Below, in pieces: positions 10,817 to 41,978 of a stretch of DNA of 64,000 bases. Below the pieces are notes generated by a model that did not search any database, was not told the origin of the DNA, and saw only the letters and a program-made list of their open reading frames with translations. Numbering within the stretch: position 1 is the stretch's first letter; each line of letters begins with the position of its first letter. Source of the stretch: Sulfuricella sp. (GTDB lineage Bacteria; Pseudomonadota; Gammaproteobacteria; Burkholderiales; Sulfuricellaceae); the NCBI GenBank assembly GCA_041651995.1, contig JBAZID010000011.1, forward strand, positions 22,345 to 86,344, given 5' to 3'. The position numbers and the translations under genes are program-made.

Positions 10817-10877
10817 GCCGCACCCGGCATCGGGGCAACCCGGCGGTTCTTTTGGCTGCGACAAGCGCAACAATGCG

Positions 10878-12320
10878 CTACAGCAGGAATAGGGTGGCGA
10901 GGCCGAGGAAAATGAAGAAGCCCCCGCTATCGGTGACGGCGGTAATCAGCACGCTTGACCCCACAGCGGGGTCGCGCCCGAATTTGTGCATCGCCAGGGG
11001 GATGAAAACGCCCATGCTGGCCGCCAGCAGCAGGTTGAGAATCATGGCGCCAGTCATGACCGCGCCCAGTGCCGCATTCTGGTACAGGGCGTAGGCCAGC
11101 AGGCCAAGGATGGAGCCCCAGATCAGGCCGTTGACCAGGCTGACGCCAATTTCCTTGATAAACAGTTTACGCATGCTGCTGGGGTGGATTTGCCCCAGCG
11201 CCAGGCCGCGCACGATCATGGTAATAGTCTGGTTGCCGGAGTTTCCGCCAATGCCCGCGACAATGGGCATCAGCGCCGCGAGGGCGACAATTTTCTCGAT
11301 CGAGCCTTCGAACACGCCGATCACCCGCGAGGCGATAAAGGCGGTCACCAGATTGATGGCCAGCCAGGTCCAGCGGTTTTGCATGGATTTCCATACCGAG
11401 GCGAACATGTCTTCCTCTTCGCGCAAGCCGGCCATGGCAAGTACATCGCTCTCCGCCTCTTCGCGGATGAAGTCCATCACTTCGTCAACGGTCAGGCGCC
11501 CCACCAGCTTGTTGTAGGAATTCACCACCGGCGCCGTCACCAAATCATAGCGCTCGAAGGCGGACGCGGCATCGCTTGCCTTGTCGTTGCCGTTGAAAAC
11601 CACCGGGACGTCCGACATGGCTGCCGAGACCAGCGCTTCCGGGTTGTGCAGCAAAAGGCGTTTCAGGGGCAGTATGCCGCGCAGCTTTTCCTTGTTGTCC
11701 ACGACGAACAGTTTGTCGGTATGGCTGGGCAGTTCGCCAAGTTTGCGCAAATCCGCCAGCACCTGCTCCAGGCTGATGTCTTCGCGTATGGTGACCATGT
11801 CGAAATCCATCAGCGAACCCACGGTGCCTTCCGAATAGGACAGGGCTGATTGCAGTTGAGCCTGTTCTTCCTTGTCCAGCGATTTGAACAGCTCTTCGAT
11901 CACTTCGCGCGGCAGGTCGGCGGCAAGGTCGGCGATCTCGTCGGTATCCAGCTGTTCCGCCGCAGCCCGCAATTCGGCGGTGTCCATGGTGGCGATGAGC
12001 GATTCGCGAACCGCGTCCGATACTTCCAGCAGGATGTCGCCGTCGCGGTCCGCCCGCACGAGTTCCCAAACCACCAGCCGCTGATCGAGCGGCAGCGCTT
12101 CGAGAATGTAGGCGACGTCGGCTGGGTGCAGTGCGTCCAGCGTATTCTGCAATTCCGCCAGATTCTGCTTGTGCACCAGTTGCTGCACCAGATCGTGGCG
12201 CGGCATATCCTGCTTGTTCACCAGCGACTCCACCAGCTCATGTTTGTGCAAAAGCTCGACCACGCGCTTCAGGCTTTCCTGAACGCTTTCGCGCGGGGCG
12301 TTTTGGTGGCTATCTGACAT
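10878..12320 (-). CDS. mgtE: Magnesium transporter MgtE
   Basis: HPADVA N-domain, CBS pair, MPIVAGIGGNSGNQT, DPAVGSSVLITAVTD. Confidence 0.96.
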   Translation of the reverse strand: MSDSHQNAPRESVQESLKRVVELLHKHELVESLVNKQDMPRHDLVQQLVHKQNLAELQNTLDALHPADVAYILEALPLDQRLVVWELVRADRDGDILLEVSDAVRESLIATMDTAELRAAAEQLDTDEIADLAADLPREVIEELFKSLDKEEQAQLQSALSYSEGTVGSLMDFDMVTIREDISLEQVLADLRKLGELPSHTDKLFVVDNKEKLRGILPLKRLLLHNPEALVSAAMSDVPVVFNGNDKASDAASAFERYDLVTAPVVNSYNKLVGRLTVDEVMDFIREEAESDVLAMAGLREEEDMFASVWKSMQNRWTWLAINLVTAFIASRVIGVFEGSIEKIVALAALMPIVAGIGGNSGNQTITMIVRGLALGQIHPSSMRKLFIKEIGVSLVNGLIWGSILGLLAYALYQNAALGAVMTGAMILNLLLAASMGVFIPLAMHKFGRDPAVGSSVLITAVTDSGGFFIFLGLATLFLL

Positions 12321-26172: not shown

Positions 26173-27300
26173 TTGGCCACAAACCCACCGATTATTGCAC
26201 TCACAGCAGGCGAACCCGCCGGGATTGGCCCGGATCTGTGCGTGCTGCTCGCCCAGCAGCATGTACCGATGCGGGTGATCGTGCTGGCGGACAAAGCCCT
26301 GCTGGCATCCCGTGCCAAGGCGCTCAAATTGCCACTGGCCATCATGGATTATGCGCCGTTCGCCGACCAGGCCGCTCCGTCCGGCGTACTCGAGGTGATG
26401 CATGTCCCCATGGCTGCGCCAGTCCAGCCCGGTAAACTTGATCCGGCCAACAGCGCCTATGTCCTGGAGACCCTGCGCCTGGCGGTGGAGGGATGCCTGA
26501 ACGGCTCTTTCGATGCCATGGTGACCGCACCGGTGCATAAGGGCGTGATCAACGATGCGGGCATCCCTTTTACCGGGCATACCGAGTTTCTGGCTGAAAA
26601 AACCGGCACGTCACGGGTGGTGATGATGCTGGCGGGCGGGACGCCTGCGAGCAGCGAGCAGGGCCCCGCGCAGCGGGATGTGAGCGTCCGCGAGTATGGC
26701 TCGGCACCGCCGGACGCAGGCGTTGCAGCCGCCTCCGGGGTCGCATCCCCACTTCGTGTGGCCCCTGCTCTGCCCTGCGGCGGTGCGATGCGCGTCGCCT
26801 TGGCGACAACGCACTTGCCGCTCCGGGCCGTTGCCGGCGCCATTACGCGGGAAAGCCTGGCCGAGGTCATTCGCATCCTGCATCACGATCTCATTACCCG
26901 CTTCGGCATTGCCCGCCCGCGCATCCTGGTGGCGGGCCTCAATCCGCATGCCGGAGAAGGCGGACATCTCGGGCGCGAGGAAATCGAGGTCATTTCTCCC
27001 GTGCTGGAAGCCTTGCGCGCAGAGGGGATGGACCTGCGCGGTCCATTGCCGGCAGATACCCTGTTTGCCCCCCGCATGCTGGCCGAATGCGACTGCGTGC
27101 TGGCGATGTACCATGACCAGGGCCTGCCGGTGCTCAAGCACGCCAGCTTTGGCGGCGGCGTGAATGTGACGCTGGGTCTGCCCATCATCCGCACTTCGGT
27201 GGATCATGGCACGGCGCTGGACCTGGCCGGCAGCGGCAAGGCCGATCTGGGCAGCCTGCTGGCGGCGCTGGATATGGCAAGTGCGATGGTGCGGCAATGA
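26173..27300 (+). CDS. pdxA: 4-hydroxythreonine-4-phosphate dehydrogenase with a 48-aa in-frame insertion
   Basis: [42 protein letters not shown]. Confidence 0.95.
26635..26783. mobile_element. 144-bp palindromic insertion in pdxA flanked by a GGCGG direct repeat
   Basis: GGCGG at 26635-39 and 26779-83, 144 bp apart; nested inverted arms. Confidence 0.8.
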
Positions 27301-28070
27301 AGCATATCCCCAGAAAACGTTTTGGCCAGAATTTCCTGATCGACCGCCAGGTCATTGCCGATATCGTCGCGCTCATCCGGCCCCAGCCTGATGACATGAT
27401 GGTGGAAATCGGGCCCGGTCTGGGAGCGATCACGCAGCCGCTGCTCAAGACCTTGCGCCACTTGCACGTGGTGGAAATCGACCGTGACATCGTGGCGCGG
27501 CTGCATCGGGAATATGCGCCCGAACGTCTGACGGTGCATGCCTGCGATGCGCTCAAGTTCGACTTTGGCAGCCTGGGCGGCGGGCTGCGTGTGGCCGGCA
27601 ACCTGCCCTACAACATTTCGACACCGCTCCTGTTCCATCTGGCTGACCATGTATCCTTAATTCGCGACCTTCACTTCATGCTGCAGAAGGAAGTGGTCGA
27701 GCGCATGGTGGCGGAACCGTCCACGTCTGCCTATGGCCGTCTGTCGGTGATGCTGCAATATTATTTTGCCATGGAAAATTTGCTGCACGTGCCGCCGCAG
27801 GCCTTTTCACCCGCGCCCAAGGTGGATTCGGCGGTGGTACGCATGATTCCATGGAGCGAGCGGCCATTTCCGGTTTGCGATGCAAGCCTGCTGGGGCAGG
27901 TTGTCACTGCGGCATTCTCCATGCGGCGCAAGACGCTGAAAAATACGCTGCACACTTATTTGAAGCCAGCCGATTTCGAGCAGTTAGGCATTGCCCCGGG
28001 GTTGCGAGCCGAGAATCTGGGCGTGCAGGATTATGTGCGAATCGTGAATCACCTGGACCGGAAGGCATGA
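27297..28070 (+). CDS. rsmA: 16S rRNA dimethyltransferase
   Basis: [24 protein letters not shown]. Confidence 0.97.
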
Positions 28071-29932
28071 GCAGCGGGCCTTCCGGTCTGGATGCATTGG
28101 ATTTCGAGGCCATGCCGGATGAGCTCGGATTGTACCGCTCTTACCTCGATGTCCTCGGGCGTGTCACCAATCTGCTGCTCGAAGATCCGGGGGAAGAAAG
28201 CTGGGAGGAAGTGCTGCGGCTATTGGCGGGCGCCGCGCGCATCAACCATTGCGCCCTGTATCTCAACCAGCCTGGCGAGGATGGCAGCCCGCGGGCGCAG
28301 CTGTGCTCCTTGTGGTCTGCCAGCCCGCTTGACAGCACCGGATTGCAGAGCCTGGACTATGAAAATTATGACCTGCTCAACGATACGCTGCATATCGGCA
28401 TGGTGCTGGTCAAGAACATGTCTGAACTGCCCGCGCCCGAGTTCAACCTTTTCAAAAGGATGCGCATCGGCAGTGTGATGTGCATTCCCCTCCTGGTGGC
28501 TGGAGAAATGTCCGGATTTCTCGGTTTCTTCAGTCCGCGCGCGAAATGCGACTGGCTGCCGATGGAGATCGATGTCTTGTGCGTTGCGGCCAGCAACTTC
28601 TCCGCCATGCTGGCACGGCAGCGCATGGAACATAGCCTGCGAGCCAGCGAGTCGCGCTTGCGGGTGCTGGTGGGCGCCACCGAAGATATCGTGATCGAGT
28701 TCAATGCCGGAGGAGAGATTCACAATCTCTGGTCTGACCACAGCCTGTTGCCCTCTTCATGCCAGCCCGGTACCTCGCTGAGCTCGGCTTTGCCCGCCGG
28801 CATGGCGCGGACCCTGCTGGATGCCGCTCCGGATGTGCTGGGCAGCGGTAAAAGCGAAGTGGTGAGTTTTGCGCTCGAAGATGCGCTGGGCGACCAGTAT
28901 TTTACCGGCAGGCTGCAAACCGTTCCTTCCGAGAGCGGCCAGGACATGCATCTGGTCGCGCTGATCCGCGACGTGACTGCTCAGACGCAGGCCGAGGCAC
29001 GCCGCCAGACCATGCTGGATACGCTCGATCTGCTGGAAGAGGCGATTATTGATATGACGCCACAGGGCAAGCTGACCAATGTCAGTGCCGGCTGGGAGAA
29101 ACTGCGTGGCGGAGAGAAGTCGGGGCGCGTGCCGCATGAACAGTCGCTGCTGCAGTTTGTGCATCCCGACGACCAGGGGGAAGTTACCGCCACGCTGGGC
29201 AAGCTGGAAGGCGCGCCGCAAGGGCCGGGAAAAACCCTGCGATTCCGCCTGGGCAGAAAGAGCGGGGAATATTTGTGGGTCGAAGCGCGCCTGCTCGCGC
29301 ACCGTTCGCCACAGGGACAGGTCACCTGCATGCGCGGCATCCTGCGCGATGTCACGGCATCCTATCTGGAGCAGAAGCGGATTACCCGGCTGGCTCTGCA
29401 TGATCCCCTGACCAGCCTGCCAAACCGTGTGTTGCTGCATGACCACTTGCAGCAGGCGATTGTCCGTGCCCAGCGCAACGGTTCAAAAGTTGCCCTGGGC
29501 TTTATCGATCTGGATCATTTCAAGCAGATCAACGATACGCTCGGGCATCAGGCCGGGGATGCCGTATTGCTGACCATGAGCCAAAGATTGCAGGGCGCCA
29601 TGCGGGAAATGGACACGCTTTGCCGCTGGGGAGGGGACGAGTTTGTGGCGCTACTGCCGGATACCGCACAGGAAGCGGATGTGCGGCACATCGCCAAGCG
29701 CTTGATGGAGGCGGGGCGGCAGGCGATAGCGGTGGAGGGGCAGGAAGTCATGCCGACGCTGAGTGCCGGTTTCGCCGTATTCCCTGATGATGCCAGCAGC
29801 GCCGAGTCGCTGATGGCCGTCGCCGATCACACCATGTTTCAGGCCAAGCGCAATGGCCGCAACAACGTCTGCTTCTTCAGCGACCTGCCGCCCGGGCTAG
29901 CGCAATTTGAATTGCTTGATCACCTGATCTAG
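28067..29932 (+). CDS. GAF-PAS-PAS diguanylate cyclase
   Basis: [29 protein letters not shown]-site, RWGGDEF. Confidence 0.92.
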
Positions 29933-40730: not shown

Positions 40731-41978
40731 TTATTCCGGGAGCGGTTTTTCGCTGGCGAAAAGCTGGGCGATCTGCTCGCGTTCGCGTACCAGGTGGATA
40801 CTGGACCCATCCGCCATGACTTCCGCGGCACGCGGGCGAGTGTTGTAATTGGAGCTCATGCTCATGCCGTAGGCCCCGGCAGACATGATCGCCAGCAGAT
40901 CACCCTCGGCCAGCGTCAGGCTGCGGTCGTGACCGAGGAAGTCGCCGCTTTCGCACACCGGGCCGACGATTTCGTAGTTTTGTGTAGCGCCAGTGGCGGA
41001 AACGACCGGCAGGATGGCGTGATAGGCGTCATACAGGGCGGGGCGGGCAAGGTCATTCATGGCGGCATCGACGATGGCAAAGTTCCTGGTTTCGCCATGC
41101 TTCAGGTACTCCACCCGGGTGAGCAGCAAGCCGGCGTTGCCGACCAGGGCGCGGCCCGGCTCGATGATGATTTTGTGGCGGTGCTTGCCAAGCCGCGCCA
41201 ACAGGGTTTTTGCATATTCCTCCGGCGATGGCGGGGTTTCGTCCTGATAGCGAATGCCTACCCCGCCGCCAAGGTCCAGATGGTGCAGGGCAATGCCGTC
41301 CTGCTGGAGGCGGTCAACGAGGTCCAGCACCTTGTCGAGCGCATCGGCGAAAGGCGAGACTTCGGTGATTTGCGAGCCGATATGGCAATCGATGCCCTGG
41401 ATGGAAATGTGCGGCAGGGTGCTGGCCAGGCGGTAAAGGCGCGGGGCATCCTGGTAGGCGACACCAAATTTGTTGCCCTTGAGGCCGGTGGAAATATAGG
41501 GATGGGTCTTGGGGTCGACATCGGGGTTGACGCGCAGGCTCACCGGCGCGGTTTTTCCCAGGCTGCCCGCGACCTGGTTGAGCCGCAGCAGCTCGCTTTC
41601 CGATTCGACGTTGAAGCACAGGATGCCGGCTTCGAGGGCTTGGCGCATTTCACCCGCCGTCTTGCCCACGCCGGAGAACACCACTTTCCCCGGATTGCCG
41701 CCGGCTGCCAATACCCGTTGCAGTTCGCCGCCGGACACAATGTCGAAACCTGCCCCGAGGCGGGCGAACAGGTTGAGAATGGCCAGGTTGGGATTGGCCT
41801 TGACGGCGTAGCACACCAGGTGCGCCCGCTCCGCGAGCGCGTTGTCAAAGGCCTGGTAGGCCTGGGTCAGCGCAGCGCGGGAATAGACGTAGCAGGGGGT
41901 GCCGAATGTAGCGGCGATGTCGTGCAGGGGAACGGATTCGGCGTGCAGTTCGCCATTGATGCGTTGAAAGGTACTCAT
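40731..41978 (-). CDS. lysA: Diaminopimelate decarboxylase
   Basis: YAVKAN, DIVSGGE, CHIGSQI, EPGR, GPVCESGD, MSSNYN. Confidence 0.97.
   Translation of the reverse strand: MSTFQRINGELHAESVPLHDIAATFGTPCYVYSRAALTQAYQAFDNALAERAHLVCYAVKANPNLAILNLFARLGAGFDIVSGGELQRVLAAGGNPGKVVFSGVGKTAGEMRQALEAGILCFNVESESELLRLNQVAGSLGKTAPVSLRVNPDVDPKTHPYISTGLKGNKFGVAYQDAPRLYRLASTLPHISIQGIDCHIGSQITEVSPFADALDKVLDLVDRLQQDGIALHHLDLGGGVGIRYQDETPPSPEEYAKTLLARLGKHRHKIIIEPGRALVGNAGLLLTRVEYLKHGETRNFAIVDAAMNDLARPALYDAYHAILPVVSATGATQNYEIVGPVCESGDFLGHDRSLTLAEGDLLAIMSAGAYGMSMSSNYNTRPRAAEVMADGSSIHLVREREQIAQLFASEKPLPE

Follow-up and report, generated by a model that had tools for sequence, protein, structure and literature searches.

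An in-frame insertion in pdxA of a Sulfuricella species belongs to a dispersed, structured and probably mobile repeat family of uncultured Betaproteobacteria

Results

An in-frame insertion in pdxA

Within a stretch of 64,000 nucleotides from Sulfuricella sp. (GenBank assembly GCA_041651995.1, contig JBAZID010000011.1, positions 22,345 to 86,344; this whole stretch is hereafter called the window), the gene pdxA for 4-hydroxythreonine-4-phosphate dehydrogenase carries 144 extra nucleotides, which add 48 residues to the enzyme without shifting its frame. The insertion is a copy of a repeat family that is dispersed over unrelated genes and intergenic DNA. The gene and the element comprise the following features.

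26173..27300, + strand: pdxA, the host gene, 375 amino acids with a TTG start (list of open reading frames, Pfam, PDB, synteny)
26635..26639, + strand: GGCGG, the G-rich target motif directly 5' of the element and left copy of a direct repeat (sequence)
26641..26784, + strand: in-frame insertion of 144 nt, codons T157 to G204, 48 residues (protein alignment; DNA of filled and empty sites)
26643..26785, + strand: repeat element at full length, model positions 1-141 (nhmmer E = 3e-32; cmsearch 123.5 bits, E = 2e-23)
26779..26783, + strand: GGCGG at the right end of the element, right copy of the direct repeat, where the family consensus is CGACGGCG (sequence, junction table)

The Pfam family PdxA (PF04166) matches the gene with E = 4e-108 in two stretches that break at the insert, the PDB chains 1yxo and 1ps7 (E = 1e-124) cover residues 8-154 and 205/206-373 and leave about 50 residues over, and the surrounding gene order, lptD-surA-pdxA-rsmA, is the same as in relatives. 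Together with the open reading frame and the orthologue alignment, these matches bear out an earlier reading made from the sequence alone (the sequence-only reading), which had proposed 48 extra residues inserted in frame. Its observation that two GGCGG repeats lie exactly 144 nt apart holds as well, and once these 144 nt are removed in silico, the protein reads like that of orthologues with an empty site, for example P0002, as it had claimed. At 75%, the G+C content of the insert exceeds that of the gene (66%) and that of the window (58%).

To place the insertion among PdxA proteins, we scored the turn at the insertion site in 118 homologues (117 of the top 120 and the window's own protein). 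The turn measures 4-5 residues in 110 of these and carries a 12-residue remnant in three, and a long insert is present in five (the window, P0001, P0024, P0040 and P0080). A further homologue, P0051, has another 48-residue insertion, at alignment columns 321-368, which looks like a tandem duplication of the adjacent segment; this one has nothing to do with the repeat family and may have arisen in assembly. As for the insert of the window, an identical 375-residue PdxA is found in independent JGI, NCBI, ENA and Logan assemblies (including NCBI MFA7318321.1), and it is thus not an artefact of assembly, the possibility that the sequence-only reading had named as one that would speak against it.

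In an AlphaFold prediction, run with an alignment of 18 sequences, confidence is moderate to high for most of the PdxA core (mean predicted local distance difference test score, pLDDT, 75.7), while residues 157-204 score about 26-29, that is, below 50. The insert sits between the strands 150-154 (VVMML) and 207-210 (RVAL). The 48 residues are therefore predicted to form a floppy, low-confidence surface loop that leaves the PdxA fold undisturbed, which agrees at the level of the model with the earlier proposal that the insert is tolerated in a surface turn. By alignment offsets, His214 of the window's PdxA (in TTHLPL) corresponds to residue 166 of E. coli PdxA, reported to be the Zn ligand in the published 1PS6/1PTM structures.

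The insert is a member of a dispersed repeat family

When the insert peptide (50 residues) was compared with 1.84 billion protein representatives, the same module was found to recur in unrelated, non-PdxA proteins, namely behind the N-terminus of a TctC/Bug protein, behind the N-terminus of oligopeptidase A (prlC) and, twice in tandem, in a short open reading frame. A profile of the module run against a word-indexed protein database returned five short fragments and missed the PdxA copies, and is unfit as a census. At the nucleotide level, a conserved 26-nt core was located at 42 loci in about 20 GTDB genomes, with up to 5-6 loci per genome, and nearly all of these are metagenome-assembled genomes (MAGs) of uncultured Betaproteobacteria/Burkholderiales. 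An nhmmer profile of the element gave 72 non-overlapping hits in about 60 fetched loci from about 20 MAGs. The unit measures 140-150 nt (141 or 144 nt within tandem arrays), the pdxA insert aligns with copies from unrelated contexts from end to end, and the copies occur both in unrelated genes and in intergenic DNA. The sequence-only reading, which spoke of a coding repeat like the Rickettsia palindromic elements (RPEs) in a free-living betaproteobacterium, is upheld by this recurrence in unrelated genes and, in frame, in several Pfam families. Its suggested search for further copies had a divided outcome: the element is found at the many loci just described, but blastn, tblastn, nhmmer and an unfiltered covariance-model search detected no second copy in the 64-kb window. 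Two marginal covariance-model hits there (41760-41882, 17.9 bits; 10847-10971, 15.5 bits) are devoid of the conserved core and were judged to be chance matches.

The family is a mosaic resembling bacterial interspersed mosaic elements (BIMEs) rather than one unit type. Tail-to-tail inverted dimers occur in two MAGs (L042:5579-5818 and L050:2712-2951), and at L023, L027, L032 and L035 a variant right arm is joined to the middle of a left arm in chimeric junctions. Half copies of a type B (L013:1114-1194, L014:3232-3315, L017:1929-1987, L018:1470-1553, L020:6472-6550, L036:2956-3036, L041:7382-7444, L043:4986-5044 and L049:1360-1421) consist of the left arm and a conserved tail that encodes AAAAVLIAQA, reminiscent of the end of a signal peptide, and are placed behind the TctC sequence IVPFPxGG. 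At L013 and L043, which were translated in detail, and also at L023 and L027, the host N-terminal sequence YPxxPVRVIVPFPxGG is present on both flanks of the element, as if about 50-90 bp had been duplicated at the individual locus or recombination had taken place. Five of the contigs (L016, L027, L041, L048 and L049, all CAZEAX01) come from a MAG named ‘uncultured Streptomyces sp.’ but carry TctC genes of betaproteobacterial type together with the element, and the label of this bin is probably wrong.

Two hairpin domains with compensatory changes

Folded on its own, the segment 26630-26790 is no better than its dinucleotide shuffles (z = -0.68 as RNA, +0.08 as DNA), so that structure cannot be claimed from the window alone. 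The structure of the family was obtained by running RNAalifold on 32 distinct full-length copies, and it consists of two adjacent hairpin domains.

26643..26721, + strand: left domain, closed by helix P1, GCCTGCG (26643-26649) with CGCAGGC (26715-26721) (RNAalifold, 32 copies)
26674..26692, + strand: invariant inner hairpin, CGGGATG-TGAG-CGTCCGCG (copy alignment and RNAalifold)
26730..26782, + strand: right hairpin domain, CGCC...GGGGTCGCATCCCC-loop-GGCCCCTGCTC...GGCG (RNAalifold, pair counts)

P1 is the best-supported helix, and it is the one that the sequence-only reading had offered as an alternative pairing (ACGCCTGCG/CGCAGGCGT). In columns 2-4/85-87 its pairs switch between CG/GC, CG/AU and CG/UA, and six complementary variants of the whole helix were observed (GCCTGCG/CGCAGGC, GCCCGCG/CGCGGGC, GCTCGCG/CGCGAGC, GGACGCG/CGCGTCC, GCACGCG/CGCGTGC and AGACGCG/CGCGTCT). 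The inner hairpin belongs to a core of about 50 nt that is kept in all copies of the family, including those in prlC and the type B half elements. In the right domain, covarying pairs were found at 112/141 (GC 20, AU 10), 101/153 and 102/152, and the variants of its apical stem are either compensatory or extended. Paired cells amount to 97.5%, against 92.0 ± 0.4 in shuffles (0/500), and cells with a double change number 62, against 22 (0/500); slid controls were 37-51% paired. Since the copies are related to one another, the shuffle control does not amount to a probability, and a stronger structural argument comes from how many independent variants of P1 there are. Invariant G·U pairs identify the plus strand of the element as the strand that folds, and this strand corresponds to the sense of the mRNA in almost every genic copy.

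The single nested palindrome of the sequence-only reading did not survive in that form. The inverted repeats it listed are present, but as one nested hairpin they show no compensatory change, with pairing at 81.8% against 82.8% in shuffles of the 32 copies, and we replace it by the two hairpin domains and a set of conserved inverted terminal motifs. The latter, GAGCAGGG ... CCCTGYTC, formed the outer arms of the nested hairpin; they are 94-96% complementary without covariation, lie 13-20 nt inside the ends and may be terminal recognition sites. A scan of Rfam at E ≤ 1 returned no family.

Host genes, reading frames and the target motif

In-frame copies with Pfam domain matches on both sides were found for PdxA, Peptidase_M3 (two sites), MR_MLE, CHAD, Complex1_30kDa and TctC. 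They include copies in pdxA of five lineages, in oligopeptidase A behind NCNFSPPVGGA (six loci, with a second site in L037), in an enolase-superfamily (MR_MLE) gene behind MKIKVGG (L051), in a CHAD protein (L040) and in NuoC (L030). Nearly all genic copies lie in the sense orientation. A partly deleted antisense copy, likewise in frame, is found in a UbiH-like FAD monooxygenase gene (L001:1743-1793, gene 1136-2458 on the minus strand); it shares its contig with the pdxA copy of P0024 but belongs to another subfamily. Open frames as such are no proof of selection for coding, given that the G+C content also opens the reverse frames (in 17-25 of 31 copies), and we did not rely on them.

In 17 diverged TctC genes, the element stands directly behind identical NRxGAGG codons. 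At the six loci that were translated in detail it shifts the frame: translation from upstream runs into a stop at the TGA of GGGATGTGA, and what follows downstream of the element is read in another frame, both halves of the gene being otherwise intact; a frame census showed that most of the remaining TctC copies agree with this frame-breaking pattern. The element copies in these genes are on average 90.8% identical, compared with about 62% for the 120-nt flanks, and the element is the more alike of the two in 136 of 136 pairs. Because element identity so far exceeds flank identity, the TctC insertions look independent of one another as judged from their sequences. In copies at the GAGG site, including L016:1434-1580, L038:162-308 and L024:619-765, the TGA of GGGATGTGAAC overlaps a GTG (GTGA) that lies in the frame running into the downstream half of TctC; this could be a stop-start coupling signal dividing the protein in two, or a coincidence.

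At every junction, GGCGG or GGCGC is present no more than a few bases 5' of GCGAGCAG, the conserved start of the element, and the same type of G-rich motif precedes the TctC, prlC and MR_MLE copies. The right end of the element (…CGACGGCG) resembles this target motif, which fits the occurrence of tandem arrays. Flanking repeats are seen at the pdxA copy (GGCGG) and at the L051 copy (GGCGGCGC); elsewhere the right-hand repeat is mostly the conserved end of the element itself.

Filled, empty and decayed sites in pdxA

Codon-based comparison showed that the insert and its host gene have diverged to very different extents. Between the window and L006, the insert has a synonymous divergence (dS) of 0.00 (0/41 synonymous sites) with two non-synonymous changes, whereas dS in the rest of pdxA is 0.46; between L001 and L004 the two values are 0.00 and 0.40, and between the window and L001 the insert has a dS of 0.13 and a non-synonymous divergence (dN) of 0.15, compared with 1.0 and 0.22 in the rest of the gene. 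Overall, dS ranges from 0.00 to 0.13 in the insert and from 0.40 to 1.2 in the rest of pdxA, and dN/dS is about 1.1 versus 0.08-0.27. Given this dN/dS near 1 and the low dS, the insert is, on the evidence of these alignments, not under selection at the protein level, and it is either of much more recent date than the genes that carry it or under constraint at the nucleotide level. Counted as differences per site, element and flanks gave 2/143 vs 72/600 (p = 2e-5), 2/143 vs 95/600 (p = 1e-7) and 19/143 vs 164/600 (p = 3e-4) in three comparisons, and conservation falls off at the edges of the element. Where the sequence-only reading had foreseen a single-copy insert conserved as protein without DNA structure as its undoing, we thus find conservation of the DNA, a dN/dS of about 1 and a fold backed by covariation.

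In a tree of PdxA proteins, the insert-bearing sequences are interspersed among empty ones. A protein-only neighbor-joining tree in which the window and P0001 are not sisters is contradicted by a bootstrapped DNA tree, in which the window and L006 are sisters (85% bootstrap), and was not relied on for this node. These two genes are 88.3% identical and their inserts 2 nt apart. The pdxA gene of L061, which has an empty site, is 96.8% identical to the filled gene of L006 and was its nearest relative in 1000 of 1000 resamplings. With an empty and a filled gene so nearly identical, the sequences indicate that presence and absence switch within about 3% divergence, through recent gain or precise loss. 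Precisely where the insertion would lie, the L061 gene (10001-10987) contains a single additional base (GGGCGGCGGCGATG vs GGGCGGGGCGATG), which splits its open reading frame; it is likely a long-read indel error, because the contig carries many split genes, though it could be an excision footprint. At L002 and L003 the right domain alone is recognisable at the pdxA site, as in a half-decayed copy, and Sulfuricella-type sequences retain there a 21-nt remnant of the right end that encodes APALP. Going by these alleles, the pdxA site would be one into which a mobile element recurrently inserts or from which it departs.

Apart from these subjects, the longest open reading frame of the PAS/GGDEF gene that lies 3' of rsmA (27851-29932) begins within rsmA. 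In relatives this gene is called at 619-621 amino acids and overlaps the end of rsmA by only a few bases, so that its true start in the window is probably farther downstream.

Discussion

We consider it likely that the insert in pdxA represents a structured, non-autonomous family of mobile repeats, each about 140-150 nt long, which occurs widely among uncultured Betaproteobacteria. It aligns with a family whose copies are dispersed, share a target motif and stand both in frame and in frame-breaking positions; the structure is supported by covariation, protein-level selection is lacking in the insert, and nearly identical pdxA alleles differ in its presence. The following course of events would account for these observations. 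The element would insert just 3' of a G-rich GGCGG/GGCGC motif, typically at Gly-Gly codons of GC-rich genes, and since its right end recreates the motif, tandem arrays could arise. In pdxA, a copy of exactly 144 nt with an open frame would have come to lie in a strand-to-strand turn about ten residues before the Zn-ligand His, where it would be translated as a disordered, Gly/Ala/Ser/Pro-rich loop of 48 residues while the enzyme remained functional, and this same site would repeatedly have gained or lost the element. Among the dispensable TctC paralogues, it would land out of phase and break the gene. Our best guess at the mover is a target-specific transposase or recombinase supplied in trans and possibly acting on a folded single strand, in the manner of IS200/IS605 or REP elements, although none was seen in the loci.

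Several points weigh against this reading. A regular target-site duplication is not evident across the junctions of the family copies, neither a transposase nor an autonomous parent was seen in the fetched loci, in which no pair of ends brackets a gene, and a search of 72,556 plasmids and of a set of viral contigs gave no hits to the family. The window holds a single copy. Since the pdxA-type sequence variant was seen in a metagenome scan solely in pdxA and prlC, these Sulfuricellaceae/Gallionellaceae-like genomes may contain few copies of the family, and it may have ceased to be active in them. The translation of the loop and the activity of the enzyme that carries it are predicted. Furthermore, as the window and L006 are sisters at the DNA level, one ancestral insertion is possible for this pair, in which case unusually strong conservation of the nucleotides would have to take the place of a recent insertion; the near-invariant left arm in prlC, next to an adjoining part of the insert that has diverged, also hints at constraint.

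These last observations are what one would expect if the insertion were old and vertically inherited, its nucleotides and especially the left-arm core of about 50 nt being kept by purifying selection as an RNA or DNA module (which might be bound by a protein, or serve the mRNA of the surA-pdxA-rsmA operon as a structure or as a site of processing, to give examples), and the empty sites being precise losses. We regard this as unlikely. In its favor, the inserts of the sister pair differ at 2/143 nt in genes with 25% divergence at third positions, the ratio of element divergence to gene dS is about 0.03-0.15 and is similarly low in shallow and deep pairs, and the left arm in prlC is 93-100% conserved in 5 of 6 loci (the value is lower for L029, whose loop is of another variant), against roughly 60-65%, as estimated by eye, for the remainder of the insert. 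The compensatory changes, the invariant G·U pairs on the sense strand and the confinement of the pdxA-type variant to two genes point the same way. On the other hand, a filled and an empty allele are known that have diverged by no more than 3.2%, the element has decayed at the same site elsewhere (the left arm is unrecognisable in L002, and the Sulfuricella-type sequences keep the 21-nt remnant only), and the pdxA copies themselves contain changes that break pairs (C·A in P1 of L006, U·U at 112/141 in L001 and L004). Moreover, covariation can come from selection for mobility among master copies and does not call for a function in the host. A mixed account, no better than a tentative proposal, would have a structure-dependent selfish element homing to intragenic Gly-Gly GGCGG motifs and repeatedly invading, or precisely leaving, the same codon of essential genes of different lineages, while the left-arm core of about 50 nt is under nucleotide-level purifying selection in pdxA and prlC, either as a domesticated RNA/DNA module or as the recognition site of a single-strand recombinase.

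That the 48 residues might be absent from mature PdxA, because the element is removed after transcription or translation as a small self-splicing intron, an intein or by ribosomal bypassing, strikes us as highly improbable. Such removal would suit the strand-specific, covariation-supported structure of the sense strand, the sense orientation of nearly all genic copies and the intact halves of the TctC genes whose frame the element breaks. However, Rfam offers no family for the element even at E ≤ 1, and the insert has neither the C/S/T +1 nor the His-Asn residues of intein junctions. At 143 nt it is well under the sizes of known group I and II introns, and 48 amino acids are far too few for an intein. 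The copies in pdxA, prlC, NuoC and the MR_MLE gene are in phase and those in the highly paralogous TctC genes out of phase, a pattern expected if the element is translated and not spliced; in addition, decayed and remnant copies are still in frame, and the copy in the UbiH-like gene is antisense and in frame. As to an artefact of assembly or chimerism, or a lineage-specific expansion of low-complexity sequence without any repeat family, metagenome contigs do often break or mis-join at repeats (as at the contig end of L010) and the single-sequence fold is not significant, but the occurrence of the identical protein in several independent sources, of the same insert in four further pdxA lineages and of full-length profile and covariance-model matches (E = 1e-23 to 1e-32) effectively refutes it.

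Elements of this kind are known, from RPEs in Rickettsia and from intragenic REPs, while the family described here appears to be undescribed as far as our literature searches reach. RPEs reportedly go back to work by Ogata et al. in 2000 and 2002. They are repeats of about 105-150 bp found in frame in many Rickettsia genes (PMC10969869, PMC3184786). Both they and the present family are dispersed, hairpin-forming repeats that stand in frame in unrelated housekeeping genes and encode a peptide that the fold tolerates, and neither has a known transposase. In contrast to the RPEs of obligate intracellular Alphaproteobacteria, however, our family resides in free-living, GC-rich Betaproteobacteria, has a pronounced GGCGG/GGCGC target that brings it to the same codon in many paralogues and lineages, folds into two covarying domains and in many copies breaks the frame of its host. 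Homology to RPEs is unlikely, judging from host clade and base composition, and ‘RPE-like’ should be understood as describing behavior and not family membership.

Intragenic REPs occur in several free-living species, including the betaproteobacterium Thauera (Di Nocera et al. 2013, PMC3733652). Elements of the REP/REPIN-RAYT type are also GC-rich stem-loops, often clustered or dimeric and sometimes intragenic, where they encode tens of residues, and their mobilisation probably involves a single strand in folded form; our family, too, includes mosaics and tail-to-tail dimers (L042, L050, L023 and L027). A REP unit, however, measures 20-40 bp, with a terminal GTAG/CGTC tag and stems of 5-13 bp, whereas the unit here is 140-150 nt long with a long-range closing helix. 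Since in addition its CGTC lies beside a hairpin loop and is not terminal, and RAYT was not seen in the loci, we rejected an identity with REPs. BRE, a repeat of Bordetella, Polaromonas and Delftia, is sometimes intragenic (Hot et al. 2011, PMC3110155). It resembles our family in being a tandem-prone betaproteobacterial repeat that may lie wholly within coding sequence, but has about 90 bp and flanking runs of T/A, and when five published BRE sequences were compared, the best nhmmer --max match scored below zero (E = 1.6) and blastn found nothing, so that this identity was rejected too.

Transposable elements of the miniature inverted-repeat kind (MITEs) with open frames, such as ERIC/YPAL, BOX and Correia, have reportedly been discussed by Delihas in 2007 and 2011. 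MITEs and the palindrome-associated transposable elements (PATEs) of IS200/IS605 are, like the present family, non-autonomous, short and structured and occur within and between genes; the conserved inverted motifs near the ends of the family may correspond to their terminal repeats, but are short, and the fetched loci contain no parent insertion sequence or transposase. With IS200/IS605 the family further appears to share insertion beside a short specific motif, the lack of a regular target duplication, strand-specific hairpins and possibly precise excision. Its target motif would fit a PATE, as would its strand-specific G·U/G·T pairs, but no TnpA was found in the loci, and the closing helix of the left domain spans about 80 nt, in contrast to the local subterminal hairpins at IS200/IS605 ends. 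What is distinctive of the family is the combination of a strong target motif, a two-domain covarying fold and a series of pdxA alleles.

Taken together, in-frame coding repeats, which have mostly been regarded as a peculiarity of Rickettsia apart from scattered cases among REPs, are now seen also in free-living, GC-rich Betaproteobacteria. This matters for annotation, in that genes of MAGs are split or lengthened by the element and metagenome contigs break at it. The target motif, with its 17 diverged TctC paralogues, the covarying fold and the contrast between tolerated and destructive outcomes make the biology of the element testable, and the filled, empty, decayed and remnant alleles of pdxA offer a natural series in which to study how mobile DNA may give rise to new protein loops, how an essential enzyme tolerates them and what machinery moves the element.

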